The notes below the pieces were generated by a model. It made no database searches. It was not told where the DNA came from and saw only the letters and a list, made by a program, of their open reading frames with translations. The position numbers were made by a program, and so were the translations under genes. A DNA stretch of 64,000 nt from a virus. Lineage: Duplodnaviria > Heunggongvirae > Uroviricota > Caudoviricetes. How positions within the stretch are numbered: the stretch's first letter is position 1; each line of letters starts with the position of its first letter. Below, one piece after another: positions 28,084-54,859 of the stretch. The stretch lies in IMG/VR virus record IMGVR_UViG_2785510761_000002; one strand, given 5' to 3'.

Positions 28084-28199
28084 CTGAATGATTACGCGCG
28101 GCATCGGGTGGAGATGTTGGACCCCCGCCGTGGACGGCTGCTGCAGGCTGCCGTAGGACGTTGTACACACGTCACTTAGGGATTCGAACCCCAGTCCAG

Positions 28200-28271
28200 T
28201 GCGCCTCCCTGGAATCGAGCCAGGGGCCTCCGTCTTATCAGGACGGCGCTCTACCGCTGAGCTAGAGGCGC
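28200..28271 (-). tRNA. tRNA-Ile(GAT)
   Basis: Acceptor GCGCCTC/GAGGCGC, anticodon loop CTGATAA. An orphan T-arm plus acceptor fragment (GGGGTTCGAATCCCTAAGTGAC) lies immediately 3', a tRNA remnant. Confidence 0.8.
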
Positions 28272-28345
28272 ATGCCACTGATTCGTTGACACTGGTTCAG
28301 TGACCAAAACCTTGAGAGGCCGACTTCCGGTAGGTAGTCGGCTCG

Positions 28346-28429
28346 TGGCCCTCCCGGGGCTCGAACCCGGACGCTCTTTCGAGCACCGGCTTTTGAGGCC
28401 GGAATGTCTACCATTTCCAACAGAGAGCC
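28346..28429 (-). tRNA. tRNA-Leu(CAA)
   Basis: Type II. Anticodon arm CCGGC-CTCAAAA-GCCGG. Variable-arm hairpin GCTC-GAAA-GAGC. Confidence 0.8.
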
Positions 28430-28601
28430 AGGTGGCTGCTGCCGAGGACTTGAACCCCACCTCCCGGTATTCGCTCGGGCGCGCTTATCGCGGATCGCCA
28501 ACCCGTCATGACCTGGGAGTGCGATGTGCTCACAGTTGCCACGCTCGCCCCCGAAAGTGCACGCAGGGGAGTCACGTTCTTCCGATTGCGCCAAACAGCA
28601 G

Positions 28602-28674
28602 TGCGCCCGCCAGGGTTCGAACCTGGGGCCTACGGATTAAGAGTCCGCAGCTCTACCAACTGAGCTACAGGCGC
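28602..28674 (-). tRNA. tRNA-Lys(CTT)
   Basis: Acceptor GCGCCTG/CGGGCGC, anticodon loop CTCTTAA. Confidence 0.85.
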
Positions 28675-28839
28675 CGAGGGAGCTTGCATCCCATCCGCCG
28701 GCCTCACACCGACTTTTCCGAGTTTCACGGTCCTGTCCAGGCACTGCCTATGCAGCTCCGGAGCACCATCGTCAAGTGTTAGCCTGCCAACCTCGACGCT
28801 CCGCCACGGGCTCTCACCGTGGGTGATGCTCGATCCTCG

Positions 28840-28913
28840 TGGCCATCCTGGGACTCGAACCCAGAACCTTCTGATCCTAAATCAGACGCCTCTGCCAATT
28901 GGGCTAGACGGCC
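28840..28913 (-). tRNA. tRNA with anticodon TAG (Leu-decoding anticodon on a type-I, short-variable-arm scaffold)
   Basis: Acceptor GGCCGTC/GATGGCC, perfect anticodon stem TCTGA/TCAGA, loop TTTAGGA, T-arm CTGGG-TTCGAGT-CCCAG, 5-nt variable loop. Confidence 0.5.
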
Positions 28914-29266
28914 GGGTCCCGCACAATTTTGCAGCCGTGACAGCACCTATCCGCGGTGTGCCGTCCGTGCCTCATCTCCCACACCAGACTGCCTGGACTC
29001 ATGAACCCTGGCGCTATAGCTAACCAGGGTGGCGCGGTACGGGGGCGCGCGTAGGGAAGGGTGGTCCGGCTGCCTCCAGTATGAGACGCAACGCAACGTT
29101 TCGCATCACCGAACGCGGTATTGCACGCCTCAAAGGACGGGAGCCGGAAAAGTGTGTGTCTGCCGCGAGGGAATCTCCGCAGACCCTCGGCCTGCACGGT
29201 GGCGGGTTCCGAGGCTAGCCGCGCATGACGCGGCCGATACAACCCGAGCCGCTGGCTCGGATGTGG

Positions 29267-29341
29267 TCGGGACGACAGGATTTGAACCTGCGACTTCACG
29301 CTCCCAAAGCGCGCGCTCTAGCCAAGCTGAGCTACGTCCCG
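29267..29341 (-). tRNA. tRNA-Pro(TGG)
   Basis: C1:G72 acceptor CGGGACG/CGTCCCG as in bacterial tRNA-Pro. Anticodon loop TTTGGGA. Confidence 0.8.
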
Positions 29342-29669
29342 GTATTGCTGATTTCGGCCTATCCTAGACAGCGACCTTTGAGGTCACTTCACATGCACGG
29401 CTTAGCGAGGCTCAGCAGGGCCTGCCGCGTTTGTTCGGACAGTGTTGCGGCTGAGAGAAGAGGTTGACGAAAGGAATGATCGCGCTCTGCCGTTGAGCTA
29501 CGGAGCCTTACGGCACCGGCGGGATTTGAACCCGCATCTCGTCTTTGCAAATAGAAGTAACTCTCGTCTTCGCACCTCAGCCACGTAAGGGAGAACACCC
29601 GCCACCCGCGGAGCCGCACGCTCGAGTCGTACGGCAGCAATACCGGAGTTGAGCCGGCGCAGTTCTCTG

Positions 29670-29755
29670 TGGGCCTGGCAGGAGTCGAACCTGCGATGTG
29701 TCTAAACTGTGGCCGATTTACAGTCGGCTGCCTTCGCCACTCGGCGCACAGGCCC
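29670..29755 (-). tRNA. tRNA-Tyr(GTA)
   Basis: Acceptor GGGCCTG/CAGGCCC, anticodon arm GCCGA-CTGTAAA-TCGGC, long variable arm. Confidence 0.75.
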
Positions 29756-29834
29756 AAAGCCCGCGAATGCGGGCCCTGCCCACGTCGAAACGTGGACTAA
29801 TTCACAATCTCTATGGAGTTTTCAAGGTGCTTTG

Positions 29835-29907
29835 CGGGGCTGGCAGGGCTCGAACCTGCGACCACCGGTTTTGGAGACCGGTGCTCTACCAACTGAGCTA
29901 CATCCCC
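29835..29907 (-). tRNA. tRNA-Trp(CCA)
   Basis: Anticodon loop CTCCAAA, T-loop TTCGAGC. Confidence 0.8.
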
Positions 29908-30193
29908 AGATGCTCTTTCGAGCCGTTCGCATACTGAATGCGCGGTGTTTGGCGGGAAGGTTATCCGCCGAAAAGAGAATAAGCCCGGGACCGAATTTCG
30001 GTGCGCGGGCTTCGAGAGAAGATTGGGCCTAGATCGAGGCCGGTTTACCCGCAGGTGGAGGCGAATACAGATTATGGGTATGCGAGAGCCACTGCTGTGT
30101 GCTCAAACTGCGTCCCATGATTGTCTCCTGCTATTCGGATGTACCAACACTACACTTCACATCGAAAATAATTCAAGTTTTCATGTTGTTTCG

Positions 30194-30264
30194 CTGCCCC
30201 GTCAGGATTCGAACCTGAGCTTTCAGCTCCAAAGGCTGTCGTGCTGCCGTTACACTACGGGGCA
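30194..30264 (-). tRNA. tRNA-Gln(TTG)
   Basis: U1:A72 acceptor TGCCCCG/CGGGGCA, Gln-type D-arm, anticodon loop CTTTGGA. Confidence 0.75.
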
Positions 30265-32173: not shown

Positions 32174-33217
32174 CTACTGGCCGTGGATTTTCCCATCGTC
32201 TCCGATGTACAGGTCAACTGAGCCGTGTGTTTTTGCTGCTGAGGTCATGCGGTCTCCGAGTTCACCCAGTCCACGGTCCCAGAAGCCCGATCCATGCCGG
32301 TTGCGAGTGAGCCAGAAATCGTGGCCGAGCTGTGCCATGCGCTCATTTCGATCCTGCCCAATTGCGTCACTCACCATGTACTCGTTCACGAGCTGCCGGT
32401 TCGAGATCATGAAATTGGCGAGGTCATCCTTCATTTCGTTCTTGAGAACGTCAGAAAGGTCCTCCTCGTCGTACTCGTCTTGGAACTTGCCGAGGTCGTT
32501 GCCTCCTTCATCAGTGCGTGGCGTGCTCCACATGGCGGCGCCATAGTAACTGTCGTACAGGTGCTCACGCTCGGTTTCATCACGCACCGCCCAAGCGAGC
32601 TTGTCTTGGCCGGTGTCCATGCCGTCGAACCCGCCGTCAAAATCTTCAGCGAAGCCCCAGTGAAGCGCTCCGCCTCCTTGGCAGCTGTCGTACTCTCGAA
32701 GCGCCGCAACGCTGACGCGCGCTTCGTCGAGCTGGTCAACAGGGATTTCGTACTGGGAAGCGATGTGCTCCGGCATACCTTCTTCGCTCAGCAGCGAAGC
32801 GACTTCGCTTGCATAGTGCTCACGTCGATGCTCTTCAAACTCGCCAAGCGCCATCGCGTCAAAGCCGGTATTGGTATCTGCAGCAGTATGCAAGACAGGC
32901 TGCTCTGCGTTGCCTTGGTCCGCGAATTTCTGCACCAGATCTTTGCGCTCCACTGGCGTTGCTTCCGCGACTCTCAGGACGAGATCGTTCAGCGCATCGT
33001 AGTCTTCGTCGGTCTTGGCGTTCCAGCCCATGTGGCTGAGTTGCTGGGTGAGCTCATCGTTCAACGAATAGAGCTCCTCCATGGTGAGGCTAGATGGGTC
33101 AACGTGAGCAACCGGCGGAGACGCAGCGGACCTCTCGTGTGATGCGAATGACCCGCCGCTGCCGCCCGAAGCGGTCTTGCCAAGCCCATGGTCCTGTCTG
33201 CGCGTGATGTTGCTCAT
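32174..33217 (-). CDS. leader-family protein 4
   Basis: Start moved to the internal ATG (MSNITRRQDHGLGKTASGGSGGSFASHERSAASPP). The first 100 nt or so of the CDS plus the 5' UTR are nearly identical at DNA level to the 31038..32144 paralog. Confidence 0.7.
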   Translation of the reverse strand: MSNITRRQDHGLGKTASGGSGGSFASHERSAASPPVAHVDPSSLTMEELYSLNDELTQQLSHMGWNAKTDEDYDALNDLVLRVAEATPVERKDLVQKFADQGNAEQPVLHTAADTNTGFDAMALGEFEEHRREHYASEVASLLSEEGMPEHIASQYEIPVDQLDEARVSVAALREYDSCQGGGALHWGFAEDFDGGFDGMDTGQDKLAWAVRDETEREHLYDSYYGAAMWSTPRTDEGGNDLGKFQDEYDEEDLSDVLKNEMKDDLANFMISNRQLVNEYMVSDAIGQDRNERMAQLGHDFWLTRNRHGSGFWDRGLGELGDRMTSAAKTHGSVDLYIGDDGKIHGQ

Positions 33218-33473
33218 ACGCAGATTACGAGCGGCTTCCAAGAGGCCACTCATGCCCAAGTGACACGCCCGGGATGCCGCTGGGAAGGAGGTTCTGCGGA
33301 AGCAATTCACTCGAAAAGAGCATAAGGTGCCATGGCTCCACCTGAGATGAACTCCCAGTTCAGCTGAGAAAAGGTGTGACGCCATCAAGAATTGAGGAGC
33401 CAGCAAGTGCCCCAAAAACCTGCCATGGTGGTGTTCACCGCGGGGCTGGCTTGCGGCGATAAGGAGGAGATCA

Positions 33474-33860
33474 ATGCTCACAATGTCGATACTTCTAGCG
33501 CTGGCCACTGTCGCCGCTTGCGCCGTAGGGTTGCTGCTCACTGCGGCTGCATGGGCACTGCCGCCCCAGATCCTCCCGCTCCTCGCCACAGCTGAGGGGC
33601 GCCGCCACGCCCGTCTAGCTCGGGGCATCGTCCTGCACGCACGCAGGACAGGCTCGCCCTACGGCCTCCGTCTGAACAGCTTCGTCGTGGACGGAGCGGG
33701 TGACCTCGCGGCACTATTCCAAATGCGAGACCCACGGCAGCAGGGGCTCCCAGAAGCAGCTCGCTTTGAAGCTCTGCGCCTGACTGGCAGGCCGGCGATC
33801 TGGGACGAGCGGTTGCTCCAAGTGAGACGCAAGACGATATTGGCCTACAGCGTTAAGTAG
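33474..33860 (+). CDS. hypothetical small membrane/secreted protein
   Basis: Strong RBS AAGGAGGAG 6 nt upstream. Hydrophobic N-terminus. Confidence 0.45.
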   Translation: MLTMSILLALATVAACAVGLLLTAAAWALPPQILPLLATAEGRRHARLARGIVLHARRTGSPYGLRLNSFVVDGAGDLAALFQMRDPRQQGLPEAARFEALRLTGRPAIWDERLLQVRRKTILAYSVK

Positions 33861-33887
33861 CCCCATCTGCTCAGCTCGCTGAGCTGC

Positions 33888-34889
33888 CTAGAACTCACCC
33901 GAGGCGTGGCCGCGGCGAAGGGCGTCCGCCATGCGGCGATCCTCATCCTCGTCCCGCTTGAGAGCGGCAGCGACAAGAGTTCTGTCACCGCCCGGGCCGG
34001 CATCCGGTGCCTGCTCTCGCACATTTGCGCTCAGATGATAGTCCGATGTCGAATAGCCGCGCATCGAGTCTGACTCATGGTCATTCCACTGATCCCCGAT
34101 GGCGCTGAGGGTCTGAGTGATGTTGCTCGCAGTGATTGATGGACGGCCCCGGTCTGTCCGCTGCCAGTAGACGAGATCCTCTTCTGACATCCCTTTTGGT
34201 GCACGTCTGTAAGCGGTGCCCTCGGGCACTTCCGCTGTCACCTGGATGCTCTGGCTTCCACGGCTCTTCGCGGTCGTCACGAAGACCTTGCCTGGTGGGA
34301 GCGCACCCCACTCCTGGGCGCGTTTCACGTCAGCTCGAATCAGTTTCGCCACCTGTGCGGCATCGACGTGCCCTCCGTCAAGCTCTCCGCGACGAGCGCC
34401 GGTGAACCTGTTGCCGTAGCTGCCGCCGTCGTTTTCTGCTCCCTCAGCAGCAACACCCATATCCCGGAGTCTGCTCCGACGAACTGAAGCCTGCAGCTCC
34501 TCCCCATAATCTTCAGCTTCACGCCATATCCCGGAGACCCCTGCTTTCGGGAAATGCTCAAGCACTTGACGCACGTCTCCCTGGCTGTCGAACGTTACTT
34601 GCAGCCTTCGCTCGTCCGGGGTGCCGTCGTACATATAGCGCTGGATCTCGAATCCGTGCAGGCCACCGCCGTTCCGGCCAAGATCGGTGATGTCGTCGCC
34701 CCATCGATCAGCAATCATCTGGCGGCTGTACTCAGGTGTCTGGACAGAGGCTGAAGTGTGCTCTGGGACGCGATGAGGGGCAGCGGGTGGGGCCGCGCTG
34801 TCTCGTTCGTGGGACGCAAAACTCCCGCCGCTGCCGCCCGCTGCGGTCCTGCCGAGGCCGAGGTTCTGTCTGCGTGTCTGATTGTTCAT
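33888..34889 (-). CDS. leader-family protein 5 (MNNQTRRQNLGLGRTAAGGSGGSFASHERDSAAPP...)
   Basis: Start moved to the internal ATG preceded by GCCGCAAGTAATCTCCATC. Confidence 0.7.
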   Translation of the reverse strand: MNNQTRRQNLGLGRTAAGGSGGSFASHERDSAAPPAAPHRVPEHTSASVQTPEYSRQMIADRWGDDITDLGRNGGGLHGFEIQRYMYDGTPDERRLQVTFDSQGDVRQVLEHFPKAGVSGIWREAEDYGEELQASVRRSRLRDMGVAAEGAENDGGSYGNRFTGARRGELDGGHVDAAQVAKLIRADVKRAQEWGALPPGKVFVTTAKSRGSQSIQVTAEVPEGTAYRRAPKGMSEEDLVYWQRTDRGRPSITASNITQTLSAIGDQWNDHESDSMRGYSTSDYHLSANVREQAPDAGPGGDRTLVAAALKRDEDEDRRMADALRRGHASGEF

Positions 34890-34951
34890 GATGGAGATTA
34901 CTTGCGGCGCAAAGGCTCGCATGGTCTGAAGCGCGAGCGCGGTTCAGCACG

Positions 34952-35155
34952 CTATGGAGTGAGCAGCACTGCTGGGATGCCCTCGTCACCCGAAGGCATG
35001 TACTTTCCATCCACCCGCATCCACCGGCCAGGGGTCGCGTCGCTGCACCCCAGCATGTCGGCGTACTGCTGAGCGATCAGTGGATTGGTCGTTCCCAGCA
35101 CAAGCTTTTGTTGCTTGCTGCCGGCCAGTTTCCTGACTTCGATCTTCTGGCTCAT
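34952..35155 (-). CDS. hypothetical small protein
   Basis: 67-aa ORF. CCGCGCATAC motif about 40 nt upstream and RBS GGGGG. Confidence 0.35.
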   Translation of the reverse strand: MSQKIEVRKLAGSKQQKLVLGTTNPLIAQQYADMLGCSDATPGRWMRVDGKYMPSGDEGIPAVLLTP

Positions 35156-35428
35156 GTCTGTAGCCCCCTTCGGACTGGTCAGCTGTTTCTGCCTGTATGC
35201 GCGGCTACTGAGTCATCCTTGACAGCAGACGTTCACCGGGTACCGCGCATCCCGCGATCTTGCGGCCACTGGTGCTCCAATCACCGCCAAGCTGATCAAG
35301 ACCGCGGCGCCAATCTCGTCCAATCGGTTCCGCGTCACCGAGATGTTCGCAGTGCTCGTCGTGCACGACCACCAACCCGGTTTCCGCCGGAGATCTTTCG
35401 AGATCGACAGCGAAGGTGAGCATGACCG

Positions 35429-36454
35429 CTACTCGCCGCTCATCAGGACAAGATCGACCACCTCTGGCGCGACGCCCTGCTTGAAGGCAGTTTTTTGAGC
35501 TTCGCAGACGCGCTGCTCCGCGGCCGCCGCGACCATGCGTAGGTACATCACTCGCACAACTGCGGGGTCTGCCCCTACGTCGAAGCTGCCAGCTGCGACT
35601 GCCTGCTCAAACGGACTTTGAACCTCGTCAACCAGGCTTTCAACCCAGCTCGCCATCTCAGAAATTGTTGCGCGGTCTGCCAAGAATCGCTTCACCTCAG
35701 CGATGCCGGGGATCGGAGATGCTGGGCCGGCGACCATGGCAGGCTCCGGGGTGTCGTTCTCAATGTCGGCAGGCGCCATATCCGGCTCGGCATCATCGAC
35801 TGGTTTCGCGCTTCCGGCATCACCTGAGGCTTCCATCTGCGGAGTCTCGGCGACTTCTGCAATGCCCGGGTCGTTGTGGAATTCGGGATTCGGTCGCTCT
35901 TCAGCTTCAATCTCAGGCTCATCGGGAGTAGTTGCCTTTGAATCGGGAGATGGCGTTGAGCCTGCGAGCGCGACGGGCGCAGGAATCTGAGGTTGAGCAA
36001 ACCCGCCAAGGTCTCTTGGGGCAAGAATGGTCGATGCATTCGGGCCGTCCGGAACATCCTCCGCCCATGCGGGAAGTTCTGTAGTCATGGGTTTAGGGCG
36101 CTCTAGATCGGCTGCTGAAGCCATCAGGAGCTGATCGAAGCTTGATTTCGGCTTCCCCTCGGTGACGGCGCTTGCAGTTGTCCGTCTGGCGGCGGTTTCA
36201 GGCTGCTGCCTGTCATTGGAGCGCTTATGCAGCAGCGTGACGATGAGCCATGTGACACCGATCATTGCGCATATCACCGGGATCGCAAGTGGCCACGGCC
36301 AGGCGAATGCCCATCCTCGGTCGAGGGTCCGCTGAGGGCTCGACAGGTCGCGCCCAATAAGGTCGCCGAGCGCGGGTAGCCAGTAGATCGCGCTGTACGC
36401 CAAACCAAGCAGCACGCTGAGCCCTGCGGATATCCAGAAGCTAATTTTCAGCAT
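35429..36454 (-). CDS. hypothetical membrane protein with Pro/Ala/Glu-rich extracellular region
   Basis: Start taken at MLKISFWISAGLSVLLGLAY. Inverted-repeat motif CCCGCGCA-N20-TGCGCGGG about 45 nt upstream. Confidence 0.5.
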   Translation of the reverse strand: MLKISFWISAGLSVLLGLAYSAIYWLPALGDLIGRDLSSPQRTLDRGWAFAWPWPLAIPVICAMIGVTWLIVTLLHKRSNDRQQPETAARRTTASAVTEGKPKSSFDQLLMASAADLERPKPMTTELPAWAEDVPDGPNASTILAPRDLGGFAQPQIPAPVALAGSTPSPDSKATTPDEPEIEAEERPNPEFHNDPGIAEVAETPQMEASGDAGSAKPVDDAEPDMAPADIENDTPEPAMVAGPASPIPGIAEVKRFLADRATISEMASWVESLVDEVQSPFEQAVAAGSFDVGADPAVVRVMYLRMVAAAAEQRVCEAQKTAFKQGVAPEVVDLVLMSGE

Positions 36455-36651
36455 CGAACTCTCTTTCTGTGTATGTCCCGCGCACGGGGAACGTGCCATG
36501 GGAATGCGCGGGGGTGCCGGGCGACGGCCACCCCACTCATTACGAGCGGGGGTTGAGACGTGAGTTCAACCAGGTCAATACAGCCCACGAGCGCACCGGC
36601 TCAGGGAGGTGCAAAACCCAAAAACTAGCCCCACCGCGCATTCAGGGGCTA

Positions 36652-37854
36652 ATGAATACGAGCACCATTCTCCGCGGAGACGCGTTGGAGTACCTCCGGG
36701 ATCTTCCCGATAACTCCGTCGACTCCATTTGCACTGATCCGCCATACGGCCTGTCTAGTACTAGCTCTCAGCAGGTGACCGAGACGCTCAGCCGTTGGCT
36801 TGACGGAGAGCGTGATTTTGTGCCGCAGGCTCGGGGCTTCATGGGCCGCAGTTGGGATGCCTTCGTTCCTCCTCCAGCCGTATGGGACGAGTGTTTGCGC
36901 GTGCTAAAGCCGGGTGGCCATATTGCAGTGTTCGCCGGCGCACGCACCCAAGACCTCATGGGCATGTCAGTGAGGCTGGCCGGGTTTGAGATGCGCGACG
37001 GCCTCGGCTGGGCAAGATCAGGCGGCATGCCGAAGACCCAGGATCTTGGGAAGCAGATGGCGAAAGCCGGGATCGAGGGATCGGAGAAGTTCGCCGGATG
37101 GAGCGCCGGGCTCAAGCCTGCCATCGAACCGATCCTGTTGGGGCGTAAGCCGTTCAAGGGGTCATTGACCCTTAACGCCGCGGACCACGGTACGGGCGCA
37201 CTGAACATCGATGCAACCCGAATCGTTCACCGCTCAGAGGCTGATCGGGCGGAGTCTGAAGGCAAGAACCGTCACGCGCAGTACGGCACCGCTCCAGGGC
37301 GCAATGACGTGTTCGGTGACTACTCCATGATCAAGTCGAAAGACTACGACGGCGCTCAGGGTCGTTGGCCCTCAAACCTGATCATCGACGACATTCAAGC
37401 TGAGCTGCTTGACCGCCAGTCTGGCACTTCAAGGAGCCGGAAGGGGGAGCCTCGGCGGTCGGCCGAACCTGGAAACGGGTGGGGGGCCACCAAGACCGGT
37501 GCGGAGTACGACGACGAGGGTGGAGCGTCCAGATTCTTCCTGGTCACCGACCGGCTGGACAACCTCGAGACCAGGCTGATTTTCGCCCCTCGGGCCAATG
37601 CCGCTGAGCGTCCGGTGGTCAATGGTGTCCAGCACAGCACGGTGAAGCCTCTGAGCCTCATGAGGTATCTCGCGAAGCTCATCACTCCGAATGGCGGCGT
37701 GATTCTTGAGCCGTTCGCAGGGTCAGGAACCACCGTCGAAGCCGCGCTGCTCGAGGGTTTCAGAGTTGTCGCGATCGAGCGTGAGCCGGACTACTGGCCG
37801 CTCATCGAGCAGCGCGTGCAGCGAGCGGCCGCAGGCATAGAGGTGGCCGCGTGA
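36652..37854 (+). CDS. DNA methyltransferase, beta-class amino-MTase (N4-cytosine or N6-adenine)
   Basis: Motif IV DPPYG near the N-terminus and motif I EPFAGSGTT near the C-terminus (circularly permuted beta class). Start at internal ATG MNTSTILRGD. No adjacent restriction endonuclease seen. Confidence 0.8.
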   Translation: MNTSTILRGDALEYLRDLPDNSVDSICTDPPYGLSSTSSQQVTETLSRWLDGERDFVPQARGFMGRSWDAFVPPPAVWDECLRVLKPGGHIAVFAGARTQDLMGMSVRLAGFEMRDGLGWARSGGMPKTQDLGKQMAKAGIEGSEKFAGWSAGLKPAIEPILLGRKPFKGSLTLNAADHGTGALNIDATRIVHRSEADRAESEGKNRHAQYGTAPGRNDVFGDYSMIKSKDYDGAQGRWPSNLIIDDIQAELLDRQSGTSRSRKGEPRRSAEPGNGWGATKTGAEYDDEGGASRFFLVTDRLDNLETRLIFAPRANAAERPVVNGVQHSTVKPLSLMRYLAKLITPNGGVILEPFAGSGTTVEAALLEGFRVVAIEREPDYWPLIEQRVQRAAAGIEVAA

Positions 37855-38369
37855 AAGGCATGGCTGGTCATCAAAGTGCCCAAGCAGACACCACGACTTG
37901 GCTTACCCCTCCCGACATCATCGCCGACCTTGGGCCGTTCGGGCTCGATCCGTGCGCGGCGCCGGAGCCGAGACCATGGCCGACAGCCGACCGGCACATT
38001 GTGCTTCCTGAGGATGGACTTGAAGCTCACTGGGGAAGCGAGATGGTGTGGTGTAACCCACCATACGGTCGTGAGACCTGGGCATGGCTGGAGAAGCTCG
38101 CAGCACACCCCGCGGGTGGGATCGCTCTGATCTTTGCCCGCACGGAGACGGCCGGGTTTGTTGATCAGGTCTGGCAGCGCGCTGATGCGTTGTTTTTCAT
38201 CCACGGGCGCCTGCATTTTTATCGGGCTAACGGTGAGCGCGCTTCTGCTAACTCCGGAGCACCGTCTGTGCTCGTGGCATATGGTGCCGCGGCTGCTGCG
38301 CGGCTGCGCCGGACGCAGTTACCCGGCAGTTTCGTGCACTTGAAGCGGCGCGGGTCAGCGGCGGCATGA
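37851..38369 (+). CDS. phage-type DNA N6-adenine methyltransferase (Dam_phage-like)
   Basis: WCNPPYG motif. Small 172-aa size typical of phage Dam. Confidence 0.7.
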   Translation: MKGMAGHQSAQADTTTWLTPPDIIADLGPFGLDPCAAPEPRPWPTADRHIVLPEDGLEAHWGSEMVWCNPPYGRETWAWLEKLAAHPAGGIALIFARTETAGFVDQVWQRADALFFIHGRLHFYRANGERASANSGAPSVLVAYGAAAAARLRRTQLPGSFVHLKRRGSAAA

Positions 38370-40243
38370 GCGTCTTTCCCACGGCTCATGAGTTCCGTCG
38401 CCTGTCGCCGAAAGAGCGAACGGTCGCAGCTCTCTCGCTCATCCCCGAGGGCGGTAACTGGCGCGACCTACCGCGTGAGATCGGTGAGATCTGCATGGGA
38501 GGCGCCTTCCATTCAAGCGGCGGGAGGACGAGCTTCTTTCGCCGCCTGCACCGTGCATTCCCGGCGCCGACCATCGTCGGTTCCCCTGATCAAAAATCCA
38601 CATATCTCGGTCACCCCACCGAGAACCGCCCGATCGATGAAGACGAGGCGGCTCTGCTGCAGACATTCGTTGGTCATCCAACATTGCGGGAGAGCCAGTT
38701 GACCGGAGAGGTAGTAGCGCTGGACCTGTTCGCTGGAGCAGGTGGTTGGAGCACGGCATGCGCACGTATGGGCGTGGTCGAGCACGGAGTTGAGATCATG
38801 CCGGAGGCAAGAGCTACGCGCGAGGCGGCCGGCTTCTCCACAGTCTTCGAGGACGTCTGGGACGGTCTGGCGAACGATCAGCTGCTCAAACCTTGGGGCA
38901 ACCGGCAGCGCCTGCTGATCGCCAGCCCTCCCTGCCAGTCATTCAGCATGGCCGGCAAAGGTGCGGGACGAAAAGCGCTCGATGACGTACTTGCACTGAT
39001 TAGTGAACGAGCGTACGAGCTCCCCGGCGACGGCTTGCGAGAGCGCGCCTCAGAACTTGGGCTGGACGACCGCACCGCACTCGTGCTGTCACCGCTGGCC
39101 TACATTTTCAGGCACCGCCCTGACTACGTGGCACTCGAGCAGGTGCCGACCGTTCTTCCTGTCTGGCGAGCGTATGTCGATGTGCTCAAAACGATGGGGT
39201 ATAGCGCAGCAGCGGAAACGCTGACGGCTGAAATGTTTGGTGTTCCTCAGACACGGAAGCGAGCGATTCTGGTTGCCTCGCTGCACCATGCAGCGAAGCT
39301 ACCGCAACCCACGCATTCGCGGTACTACCCACGAGACCCTCAGCGACTCGACGAGGGCGTGCTGCCCTGGGTGTCGATGGCTGAAGCGCTCGGGTGGGGC
39401 ATGACAGAGCGCCCCTACATGACCGTCGCGACCGGCACAGAAACTGGAGGCACCGACCCGGCTGCGCTCGGAGGATCCGGGGCACGCAGGACGGTATACG
39501 CCGAGCGCGGGCGCGGCGCCTGGAAGCTGCACGGGGATGCGGACAACAATTGCGGGATACTACGACTGAGCGAGGGAGAGGCTTTCGCCATCCAAACTTT
39601 CCCGCGCGTGCTGCGGCCGGAGGTGGAGGCGTTCTCCGATAAGGGTACTCCTGCCACGACCATCGCCGGGGATCCGCGCTGCTGGCCCAGAGGGCATCGA
39701 GTCAACTCGGACGATATTCGCCGTCTGGGTGAGGAGGAAGCCCGCCAGCGATACGGCGACCGTGCCGGCACCGGTTCGGTGAAACTGACCGAAGAAGAAG
39801 CCGCTGCGTTGCAGACTTTCCCGCGGGTAGAAGAAGGGCCGAGTCGAGTGGCGTGGCCCTTCGAGCGCCCTGCACAAACGGTGGTGGGCACCCGCCGGTC
39901 CGAGCAGGGGATCCTAGTTGGCCGGCAGCTGATGGATGAATCGCGTCGAGACCGTGGCGGGAAGCAGGGCGGTGTTGGGTTGAAGCCCGGACAGCTGCCC
40001 GGCGTGAGAGTTGAGCAGGAGGGGGCTCAGGCGTTGCAGACTTTCAGTCGCGCATTCCCTTTTCAGGGATCACGCTCGAAGCGCTTCCTGCAGATCGGCA
40101 ACGCAGTTCCGCCGCTACTGGCTGAGGCCGTGCTGTGTGCTCTGCTGCATGACCCTGAGCTGGTGAGGTCATCGAAGAATGTGCTGGCGCGTGATGTGGA
40201 AAAGGCGATCGCTGAGATCGAACGAGAGGAAGTGGCAGTCTGA
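38366..40243 (+). CDS. DNA cytosine-5 methyltransferase
   Basis: Motif I DLFAGAGGWS, motif IV PPCQSFSMAGKG, motif VI-like ALEQVP, motif X QIGNAVPP. Confidence 0.85.
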   Translation: MSVFPTAHEFRRLSPKERTVAALSLIPEGGNWRDLPREIGEICMGGAFHSSGGRTSFFRRLHRAFPAPTIVGSPDQKSTYLGHPTENRPIDEDEAALLQTFVGHPTLRESQLTGEVVALDLFAGAGGWSTACARMGVVEHGVEIMPEARATREAAGFSTVFEDVWDGLANDQLLKPWGNRQRLLIASPPCQSFSMAGKGAGRKALDDVLALISERAYELPGDGLRERASELGLDDRTALVLSPLAYIFRHRPDYVALEQVPTVLPVWRAYVDVLKTMGYSAAAETLTAEMFGVPQTRKRAILVASLHHAAKLPQPTHSRYYPRDPQRLDEGVLPWVSMAEALGWGMTERPYMTVATGTETGGTDPAALGGSGARRTVYAERGRGAWKLHGDADNNCGILRLSEGEAFAIQTFPRVLRPEVEAFSDKGTPATTIAGDPRCWPRGHRVNSDDIRRLGEEEARQRYGDRAGTGSVKLTEEEAAALQTFPRVEEGPSRVAWPFERPAQTVVGTRRSEQGILVGRQLMDESRRDRGGKQGGVGLKPGQLPGVRVEQEGAQALQTFSRAFPFQGSRSKRFLQIGNAVPPLLAEAVLCALLHDPELVRSSKNVLARDVEKAIAEIEREEVAV

Positions 40244-40569
40244 TGGGTGATGCGAGATCGACTATCGAGAGATACAAGCGCAGCAATGATGAGCTACGCG
40301 AAAGTAACGAGAAACTGACGCGTAAGATCGCCGGTCTCTCGGAGGAGATCGTGGGGCTTCAGCGATCCAGAGATCGATGGAGACAACGCGCTGAGACCGC
40401 TGAATCCAACATGAAAATTACCGCACAAGACGGGCAGCTGGAAGAGGTGCGCAGACTGGTCAGAGAGGCCCACATCGAAGCCCAGGCTCTCGGCGGGCCG
40501 GAAACCGTCGCGACCATCCCGGTGTCAGCCCTTGCCGAGCTCCTGCTTCCCAGAACCGTTCGCCGGTAA
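40243..40569 (+). CDS. hypothetical coiled-coil protein
   Basis: 108-aa ORF starting at the ATG overlapping the MTase stop. Helical heptad-like sequence. Confidence 0.45.
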   Translation: MGDARSTIERYKRSNDELRESNEKLTRKIAGLSEEIVGLQRSRDRWRQRAETAESNMKITAQDGQLEEVRRLVREAHIEAQALGGPETVATIPVSALAELLLPRTVRR

Positions 40570-40630
40570 CCACTCGCTTCCATTCGCGCCACGCGCGAAA
40601 TCTACGTGAAGTGACCGGGAGTGGAAGCGA

Positions 40631-40870
40631 GTGCTAGAAATCTACGCGGGGGGAATCATGAAAGAGGAGGACATGACCGAGCCAAAACCCGGCCCAAAAG
40701 TCTTTGAGGTGCATCGCCGCACGAAGGACGATGAACTGTTTGACGTGCTCACGGAGATTCCAGAGCCGTCTGACCGGTTCATGAGCGTGGCGATCCGTAG
40801 CCAGCGGACAGGTCGGACACATTGGGTGACCACCGGAGGCCTGATGAGGAAATACGATCGCATCAGCTAG
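40631..40870 (+). CDS. hypothetical protein
   Basis: 79-aa ORF. Confidence 0.35.
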   Translation: MLEIYAGGIMKEEDMTEPKPGPKVFEVHRRTKDDELFDVLTEIPEPSDRFMSVAIRSQRTGRTHWVTTGGLMRKYDRIS

Positions 40871-40898
40871 CAGGTAGCTTCCGGGATACGATTGGGCC

Positions 40899-41180
40899 GT
40901 GCAGAGAGCCAGGATTCGATTTGTTGAGCGTATCTCCAAGGAGATGAGCGGTGCGGGCATTCCAGAGCTGAGAGAGCAGATTGAGGCGCAATGCCCTCCA
41001 GGATTTATGGCCGTATCTGCCCCGTACCGAAAATCTCCCGGGGAGAACGAGGATGCGATGCAGGTGACCGCAACGTACGAACGGCGTGACAGCATGCGAG
41101 AGATCGAGGGGGAGACCCGCGAAGAACTCGATGCCCAAGTCCCGGAGGGCTGGCAAGTACTCGGCATCTGGAGAGACTGA
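40899..41180 (+). CDS. hypothetical protein
   Basis: 93-aa ORF. Confidence 0.4.
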   Translation: MQRARIRFVERISKEMSGAGIPELREQIEAQCPPGFMAVSAPYRKSPGENEDAMQVTATYERRDSMREIEGETREELDAQVPEGWQVLGIWRD

Positions 41181-41181
41181 G

Positions 41182-41191
41182 CCGCGCATTC
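41182..41191 (+). promoter_or_regulatory. CCGCGCATTC motif instance upstream of the 41238 gene
   Basis: Intergenic, about 50 nt upstream of the ATG. A second copy, GCCGCGCATAC, sits upstream of the 41575 gene. Confidence 0.4.
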
Positions 41192-41237
41192 AACGATCAA
41201 GTCGGGAAACGCCTGGCTGAGATAGCGGAGTCATCCA

Positions 41238-41519
41238 ATGGCAACATTTGCAGAGCTCGGCGAGAACGCAAAGATTCTTCGGACATTCAACCCCGAACAC
41301 GATCCGTTCGCTAGCGATGGTGAGTTCACCGTGGCGGCCACGGTTCTCGGGATCACCTATATCTACGTTCTCCAAGGGAAATTCGAGGATCCGGACGCTG
41401 TGATCGTGCGCCGGTACTGGCACCAGCCGGGAAAGCAGACCATTGTGTATGAAGGAGATGGCATTCTCGGAGGCGGATTTCGACTGACGCGCGAGGTGCG
41501 GCCAGGCGTGTGGCGCTGA
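41238..41519 (+). CDS. hypothetical protein
   Basis: 93-aa ORF. Confidence 0.4.
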   Translation: MATFAELGENAKILRTFNPEHDPFASDGEFTVAATVLGITYIYVLQGKFEDPDAVIVRRYWHQPGKQTIVYEGDGILGGGFRLTREVRPGVWR

Positions 41520-41574
41520 GCCGCGCATACGTACACCTGACCCCGGAACGGCCGGGATAGCAGGAGGGTAGAAA

Positions 41575-41781
41575 TTGTCTCAAATCACACTTCACGCACA
41601 GTATGACGATGGTCTATGGACAGTGGTCGATACCGGCTCACGCAGATGGTGGACATCAACTGGATCGAACGATCAGGCACACATTGTCAACGAGAAGCTT
41701 GCGCCTGTGCAGGCGAGCTCGGCACTTGGCCGTAAGATCCGCGCTGCGGTGGCCGCTGAGGAGCGGAAGGAGTCCCCATGA
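41575..41781 (+). CDS. hypothetical protein
   Basis: 68-aa ORF. Confidence 0.35.
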   Translation: MSQITLHAQYDDGLWTVVDTGSRRWWTSTGSNDQAHIVNEKLAPVQASSALGRKIRAAVAAEERKESP

Positions 41782-42365
41782 CTCGGAGAATTCACCGCAG
41801 CGCTCAGGAGCTCCACGACGCCTTCGACCTATTCACCGGCGAACTGATTGGGGCTGGCGCGAGCTTCGTCCAGGTGGGCGCAGTTGCTCATGGCTTAGCT
41901 GATCACAGCCACTGTTCCCGCGTCGTGGAGCTGCTCCGTGAAAGCAATGTCCCCGCACAGACGCTCCGCAGTTACTTCGCGGACATCGCCCATGTACTGC
42001 GCGGCCGCGATGTTGACGGCGGAGCATCCTGGGGTGCAGAACGCATCATGGCATCCCAGAGCGTATCGATGGGGACGGTCGCCCAGAGTGCTCTGCTTGG
42101 GCTTGGTTCGCACCCCACCTCCGCATCTGTCGTGGCCGGCATCTTCGACTCTTTCACCGTCGAGCACTGCGCGTTCATCTGCGAGAAGGTCATTAGGGAT
42201 CACCTGCTGCTTGAAGGCGGGGGAAGTGGAGAGAAATACTGGCCTGAGGTTACGAGCTTAGGCCGCTACTTCCACGCGCTCGGTGATGACGCTGACGGCG
42301 CGGCGCATGAAGAAGCCCGAGAGGAAGAACAACTCCCGGGCCGGCCCAAGCAGTCAGACAGCTGA
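41778..42365 (+). CDS. hypothetical protein (paralog of the 42354..42863 product)
   Basis: Shares GAVAHGLADHS and SMGTVAQSALLGLGSH blocks with the convergent neighbour. Confidence 0.45.
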   Translation: MTRRIHRSAQELHDAFDLFTGELIGAGASFVQVGAVAHGLADHSHCSRVVELLRESNVPAQTLRSYFADIAHVLRGRDVDGGASWGAERIMASQSVSMGTVAQSALLGLGSHPTSASVVAGIFDSFTVEHCAFICEKVIRDHLLLEGGGSGEKYWPEVTSLGRYFHALGDDADGAAHEEAREEEQLPGRPKQSDS

Positions 42366-42863
42366 TCTGCGACGCTTATGGTCAGCGACCATGCGCTCAA
42401 ACATCTGCCTCAACGCGTTGGTCTCCACCGCATCAGCGAGCGCATCGAGATGCTGTCGAATAGCCGCATGGTTTTTCAACTGCACCAGATGCAGCGCATG
42501 CCAGTGCGCTCCGAGAGCTCTCAGCACGCGTGACACCTGGTGGGATGCGGTCTGGTGGGAGACCCCCAGGATCGTCTCCTGCGCAACGGTTCCAAGGGCC
42601 ACCGCAGGAGCGGACATGATTCGATTGACCATTGATCTTTCGCTGGCGCTGAGATGTTCTGAAAGCACCACGTTCACCCCGAGCGACACCAGGTAGCTGG
42701 ACAGTGCGTCGGCGCTGCCATTCGAGGAATCCACCATCTCGAATACCTGGGTATCGTCAGCGAGTCCGTGTAGCACGGCGCCGAACTCAGACCAGCCTGC
42801 GCCGGACTCGGACATGAGACGTGCTGCGCACTCCTCTGTGGTTATGGAGACGGATTCGGTCAT
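42354..42863 (-). CDS. hypothetical protein (paralog of the 41778..42365 product)
   Basis: Start at the internal M (MTESVSITTEEC). GAVLHGLADDT and ALGTVAQETILGVSH blocks. Confidence 0.45.
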   Translation of the reverse strand: MTESVSITTEECAARLMSESGAGWSEFGAVLHGLADDTQVFEMVDSSNGSADALSSYLVSLGVNVVLSEHLSASERSMVNRIMSAPAVALGTVAQETILGVSHQTASHQVSRVLRALGAHWHALHLVQLKNHAAIRQHLDALADAVETNALRQMFERMVADHKRRRSAV

Positions 42864-43261
42864 ACTGGCTCGCCTTTCATTCGTCGTCGATCTTGCATGG
42901 TGTTGCGCAGCCGCCAAAGCGGCCAGAAGAGCGTTTTGAACCACCACCAGTCAGGATCAAATGCCCTGAACCCAAGCGGCCACGTTCTGGTGCCACATGA
43001 GGTGCAGGTGTGGATCTGCCAGTGCACTCGGTTCGTCGCCCGTCGATAGGTTCGCTTTTCAGCTGCGGTCGCTGGTTCATCGTCGTAGAAGCCCGGAAAC
43101 TGATCGTCAATCGCTCTGAGCGCCGCGTAGTAGCCCGAGCTTCCGCCAGGACACTCAGGCAGGTGTTTCTCCCACGGGTACGACAGGTCCATCCCCGCAC
43201 CGCTCCAGGCAGGGCAGCGGTTGCGCTTGTTGTAGTCCTTGCGGACTGTGCGTCCGGTCAC
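42860..43261 (-). CDS. hypothetical Trp-rich protein
   Basis: 133-aa ORF with a 4-nt overlap with its neighbours. Confidence 0.4.
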   Translation of the reverse strand: MTGRTVRKDYNKRNRCPAWSGAGMDLSYPWEKHLPECPGGSSGYYAALRAIDDQFPGFYDDEPATAAEKRTYRRATNRVHWQIHTCTSCGTRTWPLGFRAFDPDWWWFKTLFWPLWRLRNTMQDRRRMKGEPV

Positions 43262-43962
43262 GGCGCTACCACCCGATCTTCAAGCGGCCAGCCTGGGTTG
43301 ATGTACGCATCAGCATTTCCCTTCATGCGGAGGTACCCCTGGAAGTTGATGGCCTGCTCCCGCTTCCAGGAGGTCTGTGCGCGCATGAGATTGTCAGTGA
43401 CTGAGAGCCCGAGACGACGAACCATGGCTTGCAGGAGCCGTCCTGCGGCCACAGCGTCAGCTTCTGCGTCGTGGGCGTTCTCAAACGGAACCCCATACGC
43501 CTCAGTGGTGGCCGTGAGAGTGCGTTTACCCTTCCGATACTTGTCGAAGTGCTTGTCAATGACGTGCGGATCGACAATCAGCGATGGCAGCTTGAAGTCG
43601 ATGCCGTAACGTTCACATTCCGCCCGCAGGATGGAAAAGTCGAACACCGCGTTGAACGCGACAACCGGTAGCCCAGACGCGAGGACGCTCTCGAGGATTT
43701 CCCGAACTCCGGTCGCCGCGTCCGACCCTTCTGACTTGGCGCGCGCGTCCGAGACGCCGTGCACTTCGGTGGCTTTTGGATCAATTGGGAAATCTGGGTT
43801 GAGTAGCCAGGAGGCCCGCTCCTCAACAGCCCCGTGCTCGTTGAGTATCGCGACGGTCGCGGTGACGATGCGATCCGTTCCCGCCGTAACGCCTGTGGTT
43901 TCCGTGTCGAACACCGCAATGTTGCGTGCCCACTCCGGCAGGTCTGTCGTGGTCATTTTCAC
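43258..43962 (-). CDS. DEDDh 3'-5' exonuclease (DnaQ/epsilon-like)
   Basis: Exo I AVFDTETTG, Exo II VAFNAVFDFSIL, Exo III H..AEADAVAAGRLL. Confidence 0.8.
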   Translation of the reverse strand: MKMTTTDLPEWARNIAVFDTETTGVTAGTDRIVTATVAILNEHGAVEERASWLLNPDFPIDPKATEVHGVSDARAKSEGSDAATGVREILESVLASGLPVVAFNAVFDFSILRAECERYGIDFKLPSLIVDPHVIDKHFDKYRKGKRTLTATTEAYGVPFENAHDAEADAVAAGRLLQAMVRRLGLSVTDNLMRAQTSWKREQAINFQGYLRMKGNADAYINPGWPLEDRVVAP

Positions 43963-46139: not shown

Positions 46140-47660
46140 TTACGCCTCTGAGCCAGACGCCTCTTCAGGCAGCCAGGATGATGCGCTGAGGTCAATTGAC
46201 TGTTCGGACACCACGACGTCTGCCACTTCGTCGGTATGCCCATGCGCGCCAGCGCTGTGTGCTTGGGCGCGGCCGGCAGCCGCTCCTGCTGCACCGCCGG
46301 TAACCGCGCCGTTCAGCATGGACACAAGGTCGATCCCCACGGTGTCCTTTGCCATTTCCAGCAGGCCCTTAATGTTGCCCATCGCGTCACCCGCAACCTT
46401 GGCGGTGCCATCGGCGGACACAACAGTCATCTGATCGATGTTGCCGATGGCCTGGGCGTACTCGCCAGCGATCGTCGGAAGGAGCGCAATGAGATCCTGA
46501 GCGAGTACGGCATGTGCCTGCTGCTCGAGCGCCTTCGAGCGGGCACCGATCGCTGAAGCCTCAGCCGCACCCTTGGCCTCGATGGCTGCCGCTTCCGCGC
46601 GTCCCTCGGCCGCGACTGCCTCTGAGGCCGCGATACGGGCCGCGCGGGCCGCGAGGCCCTCACGCTCGACCGCCTGCGCGCGGCCGTCCGCCGCCGAAAC
46701 GGCAGCCGCGGCCTCGGCCTTCGCGAGCGCCTCGACCTTGTAGGCCTCGGCTTCGGCGACGGCGCGAACGTCGGCGTTGAGCTTCTCGGTGCGCAGCGCG
46801 ACTTCCTTCTGCGCGGTGATCTGCTGCTGCTCGACGATCGCTTGCTGCTGGATCGCCTGTTCGAGCGGGTCGGCCGCCTGCGCCTGCGCGTTCGCTTTGT
46901 CGGTCTCAGCCTGGATCTCGGCCTGGCGGAGCTTCAGCTCACGGTTGCGGTCAAGCAGCACCTTCTCAGCGCCGATCTTCGCCTCTTCAGACGCCTGGTA
47001 CGCGTTCGTCTCGGCGATGTCAGCAGCCTGGCGCACCTTCGCCGCCTCCGGGCGACCGATGTTCGCGATATAGTCGGCGCCGTCGCGGATCTCCTGGATC
47101 TGCAGCGTATCGACGACGAGGCCCTGTTTCGTCAGCGCTTCCTCGGCGGCTTCGAGCACGCTCTGGGCGACGACCGCGCGGTCGCGGATGATCTGCAACA
47201 CCGTGAGACCACCGATGATCGAACGCAGCGACCCCGAGAGGACCTCCTCAGTTGATACGTCAATCTCATCCGGGTTCGAGAGGAATCGCTGGGCTGCGCT
47301 GCGGATCATCTCCTTCGTGCCGCCCACCTTCACGACGGCGACCGCGCGGGCCTGCATCGTGATGCCGTCGGTGGTCTGCGCTTCCGTGGCGATCGTCAGC
47401 CGGCGCGACTGCAGACTGATGGAATACGACTTCTGTACGAACGGGACAACGAAGATACCGCCGCCAGTCACGACCTTCTGGCCGGAGAGGTCGCGGACAC
47501 GTCTCCCGTCGCTGTCGACGACTTCTTTGCCGTTGCCTCCGGTAACGATGATCGCTTCGTCAGGTTTGGCGATCCGGTAGCGCTTGATGATCATCAGTGC
47601 GATGAGCACAAGCACGAAGATGGCGGCAAAGATGCCGGCGATGGATGGTGCGAACAGCAC
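46140..47660 (-). CDS. SPFH/Band-7 family protein (flotillin-like)
   Basis: GTG start with RBS AGGAG. TM helix IAGIFAAIFVLVLIALMII. SPFH core followed by a long Ala/Glu/Gln-rich coiled-coil (AQAQAA...EAEAYKVEALAKAEAAAAV). Confidence 0.75.
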   Translation of the reverse strand: MLFAPSIAGIFAAIFVLVLIALMIIKRYRIAKPDEAIIVTGGNGKEVVDSDGRRVRDLSGQKVVTGGGIFVVPFVQKSYSISLQSRRLTIATEAQTTDGITMQARAVAVVKVGGTKEMIRSAAQRFLSNPDEIDVSTEEVLSGSLRSIIGGLTVLQIIRDRAVVAQSVLEAAEEALTKQGLVVDTLQIQEIRDGADYIANIGRPEAAKVRQAADIAETNAYQASEEAKIGAEKVLLDRNRELKLRQAEIQAETDKANAQAQAADPLEQAIQQQAIVEQQQITAQKEVALRTEKLNADVRAVAEAEAYKVEALAKAEAAAAVSAADGRAQAVEREGLAARAARIAASEAVAAEGRAEAAAIEAKGAAEASAIGARSKALEQQAHAVLAQDLIALLPTIAGEYAQAIGNIDQMTVVSADGTAKVAGDAMGNIKGLLEMAKDTVGIDLVSMLNGAVTGGAAGAAAGRAQAHSAGAHGHTDEVADVVVSEQSIDLSASSWLPEEASGSEA

Positions 47661-47688
47661 GGTACTCCTGTCTGGCCAGGTGGCCGGG

Positions 47689-48093
47689 TTATGCGGTGCC
47701 CGTCGAGCCGAAGCCTGCGGTGCCGCGTTCGGTGTCGTCGAGGCTGTCCGCCTCCACGATGGTTGGTGAGATGAACGGGGTGATGACCAGCTGCGCGATG
47801 CGCATTCCCGGCTCCACGGTGAAGGGCTGGTCACCGTGGTTGATGAGGTTCACCCCTACATCGCCGCGGTACCCGGAATCGACAACGCCAGGCCCGTTGA
47901 CGACTCCGATCCCATGTTTTGCTGCGAGGCCAGAACGTGGGCAGACCAGACCGACAGTCCCGGCCGGCAGTGCGATCCTGGTGCCAGTGGGGAGTAACTG
48001 GTGCTCGCCCGGTGCGAGCGTGACGGCCTCCGCGTCTGGGTCGTATCGGAGGTCCAGCCCAGCATCTCCGGGGTTTGCTGCGGCTGGAACCAC
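47689..48093 (-). CDS. dut: dUTP diphosphatase
   Basis: Motifs AGLDLRY, RSGLAAKHGIGVVNGPGVVDSGYRGDVGVNLINHG, RIAQLV. The true start is uncertain: the ORF extends to 48258 through an AT-rich stretch, and a GTG at 48093 gives a canonical-length protein. Confidence 0.75.
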   Translation of the reverse strand: MVPAAANPGDAGLDLRYDPDAEAVTLAPGEHQLLPTGTRIALPAGTVGLVCPRSGLAAKHGIGVVNGPGVVDSGYRGDVGVNLINHGDQPFTVEPGMRIAQLVITPFISPTIVEADSLDDTERGTAGFGSTGTA

Positions 48094-48281
48094 ACCGACA
48101 ACGTGAAGCTCATCGTCCTTCGAGGCGCAGGTTGGGGTGGACTTGGGTCCTCGAATGGCGGAGTATCTCAAGAAAATCTCGAAAAACATGTACGAGCCGA
48201 TGAGTACGCAAATGAGCGAAATGTACACGAAAATGAGAAGGTGAAAAGCATCAGTCATGCCTTTGTGAATGCGCGGCGCCG

Positions 48282-54640: not shown

Positions 54641-54859
54641 ATGAAGACCAGCACGCGACGGGGCGATCTCGGCCTCGGCAAGACCGCACGCGGTGGAAAC
54701 AACGGAAGCTATGTAGTCCACGAAAGGCAGGACGGCGCGCCTCCGCCCCTATCGCAAAGATCGCTTGATCGCGGGTTTGACACGCTCGACGAGAAACTTG
54801 CTGCAATGACGCAGGAAGTCTCAGAGGCGGTAGAGCGGCTGCAGGGCGACGACGAGTGA
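54641..54859 (+). CDS. leader-only minigene of the leader family (MKTSTRRGDLGLGKTARGGNNGSYVVHERQDGAPPP plus a 35-aa tail)
   Basis: Only plus-strand family member. Preceded by GCCGCATGTAATGCAGGC-ATG. Immediately upstream of the ArdC-like gene. Confidence 0.55.
   Translation: MKTSTRRGDLGLGKTARGGNNGSYVVHERQDGAPPPLSQRSLDRGFDTLDEKLAAMTQEVSEAVERLQGDDE

Follow-up and report, generated by a model that had tools for sequence, protein, structure and literature searches.

Why should one stretch of actinobacterial DNA encode three DNA methyltransferases of different classes, one directly after the other, with no nuclease at their side? The question is raised by a 64,000-nucleotide stretch held as IMG/VR record IMGVR_UViG_2785510761_000002 (here called the window), which is the last 64 kb of the 163,250-bp contig SNYA01000009.1 of Leucobacter luti (GCA_004362775.1). 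An earlier note on the window had taken the three genes for orphan methyltransferases that protect a mobile element. The analysis reported here leads to a similar answer: the genes, named M1, M2, and M3, likely form a co-transcribed, translationally coupled operon of solitary methyltransferases on a conjugative plasmid-like element, with self-protection as its most likely role.

Three coupled methyltransferase genes

The list of open reading frames (ORFs) and a gene map guided by the GC content of third codon positions (GC3) place three consecutive methyltransferase genes on the plus strand, as follows:

36652-37854, plus strand: M1, 400 amino acids (aa), class-beta amino (N6-adenine or N4-cytosine) DNA methyltransferase
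37851-38369, plus strand: M2, 172 aa, small phage-type N6-adenine methyltransferase, Pfam PF05869 Dam
38366-40243, plus strand: M3, 625 aa, C5-cytosine methyltransferase, Pfam PF00145

The stop of M1 overlaps the start of M2 in the sequence GTGA, and the stop of M2 overlaps the start of M3 in the sequence ATGA. These coordinates and junctions agree with the earlier description of three back-to-back genes with overlapping stops and starts. The three classes named there (a beta-class DPPY amino enzyme, a phage Dam-type enzyme, and a C5 enzyme) also hold, with Pfam scores above the cut-offs and intact motifs. NCBIfam names the same families for M1 to M3, with scores below its equivalog or superfamily cut-offs. 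The catalytic residues are invariant or nearly so in the aligned homologues (60 for M1, 57 for M2, and 120 for M3). No further methyltransferase was found in the window with hidden Markov models (HMMs) built from the alignments of M1, M2, and M3.

M1 matches Pfam PF01555 (N6_N4_Mtase) with an E value of 2.6e-21 and 77 bits, against a gathering cut-off of 26.7, and it also matches PHROG 67 (E value of 5e-59) and the PADLOC model MTase_II (1e-31). A DPPY motif points to adenine as the methylated base. In M1, this motif (residues 29 to 32) is followed by a target recognition domain (TRD) of ~290 aa and by FAGSGT (residues 355 to 360). This is the IV-TRD-I arrangement of class beta, which is defined by the order of motif IV, (D/N/S)PP(Y/F/W), the TRD, and motif I, FxGxG (PMC7544214). 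The order of the parts, the DPPY, and the FxGxG are shared with CcrM and other class-beta N6-adenine enzymes, and M1 is partly similar to the CcrM structure 6pbd (E value of 1.6e-14). Unlike CcrM, however, M1 reaches only 67 bits against an equivalog cut-off of 830, has an unrelated TRD of ~290 aa, and lacks the CcrM C-terminal domain. By its score and domain layout, M1 is not a CcrM orthologue.

M2 matches Pfam Dam (PF05869) with an E value of 2.9e-11 and 43.8 bits, against a cut-off of 28.1, and it matches the PADLOC profile for an orphan methyltransferase (oMTase; E value of 3.6e-16) and PHROG 111 (7e-41). Its catalytic motif NPPY spans residues 69 to 72, and N69, P70, P71, and Y72 are invariant across 57 homologues. 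The family is large, with more than 7,900 homologues spread across phyla. M2 falls under the equivalog cut-off of NCBIfam TIGR01712 (28.2 bits versus 97.05) and is thus a member of the family but not an equivalog, so that specificity for GATC cannot be assumed. Among solved structures, no relative of M2 was detectable by sequence. M3 matches Pfam PF00145 (DNA_methylase) with an E value of 1.3e-27 and 97.5 bits, against a cut-off of 22, and carries FAGAGG (motif I, FxGxG; at residue 122), PPCQ (motif IV; 188), EQV (motif VI, ENV-like; 258), QTRKR (motif VIII, QxRxR; 295), and GNAVPP (motif X; 578).

The ORFs that flank the operon within ~6 kb (32174-43962) were scanned against Pfam, PADLOC, and PHROGs. 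None matched a family of restriction endonucleases, specificity subunits, Res helicases, Vsr, or controller proteins, and the sole nuclease-type match was a DnaQ-like RNase_T exonuclease (43258-43962), whose fold is not that of a restriction enzyme. Upstream, the divergent gene (35429-36454) codes for a membrane protein in which a long linker is acidic and rich in proline, and the downstream ORFs, of 68 to 195 aa, are without family matches. Because restriction enzymes can escape profile searches, the flanking genes were also compared between copies of the trio. They differ between the diverged copies, and only the methyltransferases travel together in the three diverged elements. In Type II and Type III restriction-modification (R-M) systems a methyltransferase is accompanied by an adjacent restriction endonuclease or Res helicase-nuclease; the operon has neither beside it, and M2 fits the PADLOC orphan model. 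The view that these are orphan enzymes with no nuclease partner, rather than parts of R-M systems, was thus borne out within 32174-43962.

The same order of genes (N6N4-Dam-C5) was observed in no more than three elements, all of the Leucobacter type. Besides the present one, these are L003, a 43-kb metagenomic contig with 73 to 80% protein identity and the same synteny on both sides, and L086, a 5.3-kb contig with 54 to 65% identity and different upstream and downstream genes. A further contig, L004 (Leucobacter sp. HY1910, JBTJEP010000020.1), carries at 6023-9874 four consecutive methyltransferases with overlapping stops and starts, namely, three N6_N4 enzymes of 407, 358, and 332 aa and a Dam of 187 aa. 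The gene upstream of this array has a homologue at the corresponding place in L086, so that the type of locus is conserved and the array is a variant cassette with a reshuffled set of genes.

More widely, another methyltransferase lies within 8 kb in 13 of 80 genome loci with an M2-like gene. A second methyltransferase accompanies the M2-like gene in 16 of 80 viral contigs, four of which have three or more; one of these four, L148, carries a contiguous C5-N6N4-Dam set. M1 to M3 all match phage methyltransferase PHROGs strongly (67, 111, and 116). A megablast search of the operon against 72,556 plasmids retrieved nothing, and nucleotide matches, of only ~70%, were to single actinophage methyltransferase genes.

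The carrying element and its gene-start motif

The element looks, from its gene content, like a large conjugative plasmid of L. luti. An 836-aa AAA_10 (VirB4-type) ATPase is encoded just left of the window, and an 827-aa lysozyme/M23 hydrolase, SSB (7007-7627), DprA, and UmuC are also encoded on the element. The 1,246-aa FtsK protein matches large Micrococcales plasmids over 73 to 87% of its length; one of them, from Glaciihabitans sp. INWT7 (circular, 149 kb), shares the NERD-FtsK, M23, PD-(D/E)XK, DUF262, and BspA-LRR genes. The DUF7007 protein occurs in 401 plasmid records, 255 of which are typed as conjugative, versus 3 phage records. The VirB4-like ATPase, the synteny with the Glaciihabitans plasmid, and the plasmid bias of DUF7007 uphold the claim that the methyltransferases sit on a mobile element. 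A scan with the M2 profile of a collection holding one genome per species returned no L. luti record; as a 100% match would have come out on top, M2 is apparently missing from the genome that represents the species. This suggests an accessory element.

A large phage had been considered as the carrier because of 21 to 22 tRNA genes and a transfer-messenger RNA (tmRNA). It was rejected as the main reading because the backbone proteins match plasmids far better than phages and because of the VirB4-like ATPase. The tRNA genes and the full-length tmRNA (tag peptide ASYKQRDLTLAA) are densely arrayed at 22410-30264 on the minus strand, and a TROVE/Ro60-like gene (20713-22284) and a DnaQ-like exonuclease directly adjoin this array. 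No Y RNA scored above the Rfam threshold.

A 10-mer, CCGCGCATTC, recurs before genes of the element, including the operon:

36634-36643, plus strand: CCGCGCATTC, ending 8 nucleotides (nt) before the start codon of M1; putative promoter or operator
36502-36511, minus strand: second copy of CCGCGCATTC, serving the divergent gene 35429-36454
17376, 20685, 29936, 36502, 36634, 41182, 43999, 46070, 48267, 53994, 58200, 59861, 62573, and 62966: copies of CCGCGCATTC in the window
40243-40569, plus strand: 108-aa coiled-coil protein, overlapping M3 by 1 nt and translationally coupled to it
40631-41180, plus strand: two small ORFs of 79 and 93 aa, without family matches, preceding the CCGCGCATTC copy at 41182-41191

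Of the 14 exact copies, 13 fall in intergenic DNA, which makes up ~16% of the window, and the other falls in a small ORF of doubtful status. Every copy is co-oriented with the next gene, which starts 7 to 113 nt downstream, and often stands right after the previous stop codon. With at most one mismatch, 29 copies were found, versus 9.9 ± 2.8 expected. Because a tRNA-Trp is among the genes that it precedes, a transcriptional role is favored, and CCGCGCATTC, as judged from its placement, probably serves the element as a promoter or operator motif of its own. It is kept at the same position in L003 and is absent from L004, L086, and the Glaciihabitans plasmid; L004 and L086 bear a different, GCGCATGCGAAC-like repeat at that position.

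The two opposed copies upstream of M1 make up a 16-nt inverted repeat. A reading of this repeat as a hairpin in single-stranded DNA (ssDNA) or RNA, in the manner of an Frpo-like promoter, was rejected, as its fold z scores of −1.07 and −1.16 are not significant. Since the next copy on the same strand lies at 41182, the transcription unit likely comprises M1-M2-M3 plus the ORFs of 108, 79, and 93 aa, by the spacing of the motif. The 108-aa ORF has only weak, sub-threshold coiled-coil matches in Pfam, and it is kept in L003 and not in L086 or L004. A sigma-70 scan found no promoter, and terminator-like sites occurred at chance level.

Probable self-protection and its alternatives

In the proposed mechanism, M2 and probably M1 would add N6-methyladenine and M3 would add 5-methylcytosine, at several targets in the DNA of both the element and its host. 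On entry into a new cell, the DNA of the element would be modified already, or would soon be re-modified, and the modified sites would escape resident Type II and Type III restriction enzymes. For its expression, the operon appears to rely on the gene-start motif of the element itself, and the set of methyltransferases seems to be reshuffled between related elements, as would be expected of a counter-defence cassette.

One of the main ways in which plasmids and phages evade restriction is to carry orphan methyltransferases. They are among the most prominent functions of plasmid leading regions (Samuel & Burstein 2024, PMC11541004). All large plasmids of one test set had at least one, with five on pKAZ3, and a cytosine methyltransferase encoded on a plasmid conferred protection from restriction in that study (Dimitriu et al. 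2024, PMC11602122). As with these plasmid genes and anti-defence islands, the operon has solitary enzymes of both adenine and cytosine types, no cognate nuclease beside them, and a carrier that also encodes SSB and an ArdC-family protein; SSB, the ArdC-family gene, and the VirB4-like ATPase co-occur with it on one conjugative plasmid-like element. Unlike the described islands, its host is an actinobacterium (Microbacteriaceae), and, unlike in leading-region islands, no Frpo-like ssDNA promoter is evident (fold z of about −1), an element-specific 10-bp motif standing in its place. The resemblance to phage multi-methyltransferase clusters is likewise close, as the families are the same (PHROGs 67, 111, and 116) and viral arrays of two to four occur near M2-like genes. 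Unlike those clusters, the operon has a plasmid-like backbone, not a viral one.

The ArdC-family gene had been linked to the methyltransferases in the earlier note:

54641-55720, plus strand: distant ArdC-family gene, zincin HEVGH, apparently split by an in-frame stop into a 72-aa "leader" ORF and a 280-aa body (54878-55720)

The protein of 54878-55720 by itself has no Pfam or PDB match. A profile of 55 of its homologues matches the ArdC structures 6sna and 6i89 (E value of ~8e-11), and ArdcN of Pfam is present in 53 of the 55, which supports the label ArdC-like. ArdC proteins join an N-terminal ssDNA-binding domain to a C-terminal zincin metalloprotease (HExxH); the window copy has HEVGH, and an in-frame stop cuts off its N-terminal part. 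The 72-aa ORF, the "leader-only minigene" of the earlier note, and the 280-aa ORF share one reading frame (54641 and 54878 both leave a remainder of 2 on division by 3), are separated by a stop codon (54857-54859) and 18 nt, and correspond to homologues that are single proteins 80 to 150 aa longer at the N terminus. On this comparison, the two look like one nonsense-interrupted gene, either a pseudogene, a sequencing error, or a case of readthrough. The ArdC-family gene lies on the same element as the methyltransferases, 14.6 kb away, and does not form one module with them. The claim of self-protection has the solitary genes, the mobile element, and the ArdC-family protein in its favor; the protective function itself we infer from known biology (PMC11541004, PMC11602122). 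Orphan self-protective methylation, a strategy already described, is the best-supported reading.

The element does not avoid 4-bp palindromes, with observed/expected ratios of 0.72 to 1.21, 465 GATC sites, and 383 GGCC sites. It is therefore not protected by the loss of 4-bp palindromic sites, and this fits, weakly, with protection by modification over site avoidance.

Several points weigh against self-protection by solitary enzymes. The enzymatic activity and the protective role of the operon are predictions, no target sequence could be derived for its enzymes, and the analysis of palindrome avoidance gave no signal that hints at target sites. Leading-region islands lie beside oriT in the part that is transferred first, with their genes oriented for transcription from the T-strand. 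Neither the window nor the adjoining 10 kb on its left yielded a relaxase or an oriT, so that, unlike such islands, the operon is not placed relative to oriT. Restriction endonucleases are often undetectable by sequence, so a small unannotated neighbour could be one, and ~89 kb of the 163-kb contig lies beyond the reach of the nuclease inspection. Elsewhere in the window, nuclease-domain ORFs do occur, at 9930-10739 (GmrSD_C), 12998-13621 (NERD), and 60039-60614 (DUF262).

An unlikely alternative is that the enzymes are mainly epigenetic regulators of the replication, transfer, or expression of the element, as Dam or CcrM are. M1 is distantly CcrM-like, the element-wide motif that heads the operon also heads many other genes, and regulatory roles of plasmid methylation are discussed in PMC11602122. 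Three classes of enzyme, a variable gene set, and strongly phage-type families fit counter-defence better, and the two roles are not mutually exclusive.

It is quite improbable that the methyltransferases are instead the modification halves of R-M or other defence systems, with nucleases elsewhere on the element or in the GmrSD_C/SNF2/NERD cluster 24 kb away. Among the PADLOC models that M1 and M3 match are methyltransferases of the Type II, DruM, and DrmMII kinds; the region 9930-13621 encodes an SNF2 helicase, GmrSD_C, and NERD, and the uninspected part of the contig leaves room for a partner. However, cognate nucleases are normally adjacent, nothing nuclease-like adjoins the operon, and the trio is found again beside other genes. 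The closest ORFs for a helicase or a nuclease lie 23 to 27 kb or more away, and no core genes of DISARM or Druantia were found. GmrSD-type domains belong to modification-dependent enzymes and not to partners of methyltransferases. The GmrSD_C/SNF2/NERD/FtsK cluster was rejected as a distant restriction partner because NERD-FtsK is a conserved plasmid backbone pair, which in the Glaciihabitans plasmid has no such methyltransferases next to it. None of the GmrSD_C, NERD, and DUF262 ORFs, nor one with a weak HNH match at 5622-6029, is a plausible cognate enzyme for the operon.

It is very improbable that the three genes are what is left of a cassette from a phage, carried along passively and of little function today: the best family matches of all three proteins are phage families, and about 20% of viral loci with an M2-type Dam carry more methyltransferases, including the contiguous set in L148, but every catalytic residue is intact and invariant, the reading frames are closely coupled, and three elements have retained the trio at 54 to 80% protein identity, which speaks for purifying selection.

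A modular C5 enzyme and further cargo of the element

M3 opens with an N-terminal TRD/motif-IX-like module (residues ~12 to 106), followed by the catalytic core (112 to 340) and, between motifs VIII and X, by three more motif-IX-like units (~397 to 415, 465 to 488, and 541 to 566). Residues 12 to 101 align to the C-terminal TRD/motif-IX region of the PADLOC models DruM, DrmMII, and MTase_II. The three units between motifs VIII and X have the signature ..EEAAALQTFP... Of the four units in all, three were found by HMM and the fourth by eye or regular expression, and a self-BLAST of M3 missed the repeats, so that regular expression and HMM were needed. In the 120 closest homologues of M3, the unit HMM finds at least two copies in 62, at least three in 22, and N-terminal copies in 8. 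As far as these counts show, the repeated TRD/motif-IX-like units are a trait of the family and not an accident of the M3 gene. In the AF2 model, the core has a pLDDT above 90 and the repeats are of low confidence.

It is possible, if doubtful, that M3 is truly multispecific and represents an undescribed modular class of C5 enzymes with actinobacterial and actinophage relatives. In such a class, a short TRD with its own motif-IX-like helix may have been added in tandem, one to four times per enzyme, which we advance tentatively. With the same reserve, specificity modules might also stand N-terminal to a catalytic core of the M3 type. Multispecific C5 enzymes of phages include M.SPRI, M.phi3TI, and M.H2I, and M.phiBssHII has TRDs at separated locations, as these enzymes are cited in PMC8936443 and PMC11541004. 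As in M.phiBssHII so described, M3 has several TRD-like modules, one of them N-terminal to motif I, a resemblance of architecture only. Unlike in M.SPRI, M.phi3TI, M.H2I, and M.phiBssHII, each extra module of M3 has its own motif-IX-like helix. If the modular reading is true, one C5 gene could protect against several cytosine-specific restriction systems at once, and M1, M2, and M3 would together address at least five target motifs.

Other parts of the window are described here for completeness. GmrSD_C (DUF1524) overlaps the start of the SNF2 helicase, which has DpdE/ZorD-like matches, and NERD and the 1,246-aa FtsK/SpoIIIE follow (9930-17372, plus strand); a separate DUF262 (GmrSD_N) ORF (60039-60614, minus strand) lies 45 kb from this cluster. 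Cargo unusual for a plasmid is found at 46140-49571 and 58865-64000, both on the minus strand, and includes flotillin/SPFH, dCTP deaminase/dUTPase, DUF7007, DprA, a surface protein of the BspA-like LRR type, and a UmuC-type polymerase truncated at the end of the window. Two ORFs of 195 and 169 aa (41778-42365, plus strand, and 42354-42863, minus strand) converge and overlap slightly, and by eye they resemble paralogues. The likeness rests on GAV.HGLAD.. and ..GTVAQ..LG..H.., and neither ORF has a significant family match. Four otherwise unrelated ORFs share a start of ~30 aa, M..(I/T)TRRQ(D/N)xGLG(K/R)TAxGGSGGSFASHER..APP, which could be a targeting or transfer signal or a shared domain:

32174-33253, minus strand: ORF with the shared ~30-aa leader
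33888-34922, minus strand: ORF with the shared ~30-aa leader
51959-53368, minus strand: ORF with the shared ~30-aa leader
54641-54859, plus strand: ORF with the shared ~30-aa leader (the 72-aa part of the ArdC-family gene)

To our knowledge, functional work on orphan methyltransferases has been done nearly all in Proteobacteria and Firmicutes. The locus offers a clear actinobacterial example, in which a coupled operon of three classes lies on an almost wholly unannotated family of plasmids and the cassette varies between relatives. It leaves the current picture of such systems unchanged, and it can help annotation and serve as an entry point for methylome analysis. Mildly unusual are the four TRD/motif-IX-like modules of M3, one of them N-terminal, and the element-wide motif that heads the operon; the modular C5 enzyme and this promoter-like motif are the parts that hold the most promise for experiment.

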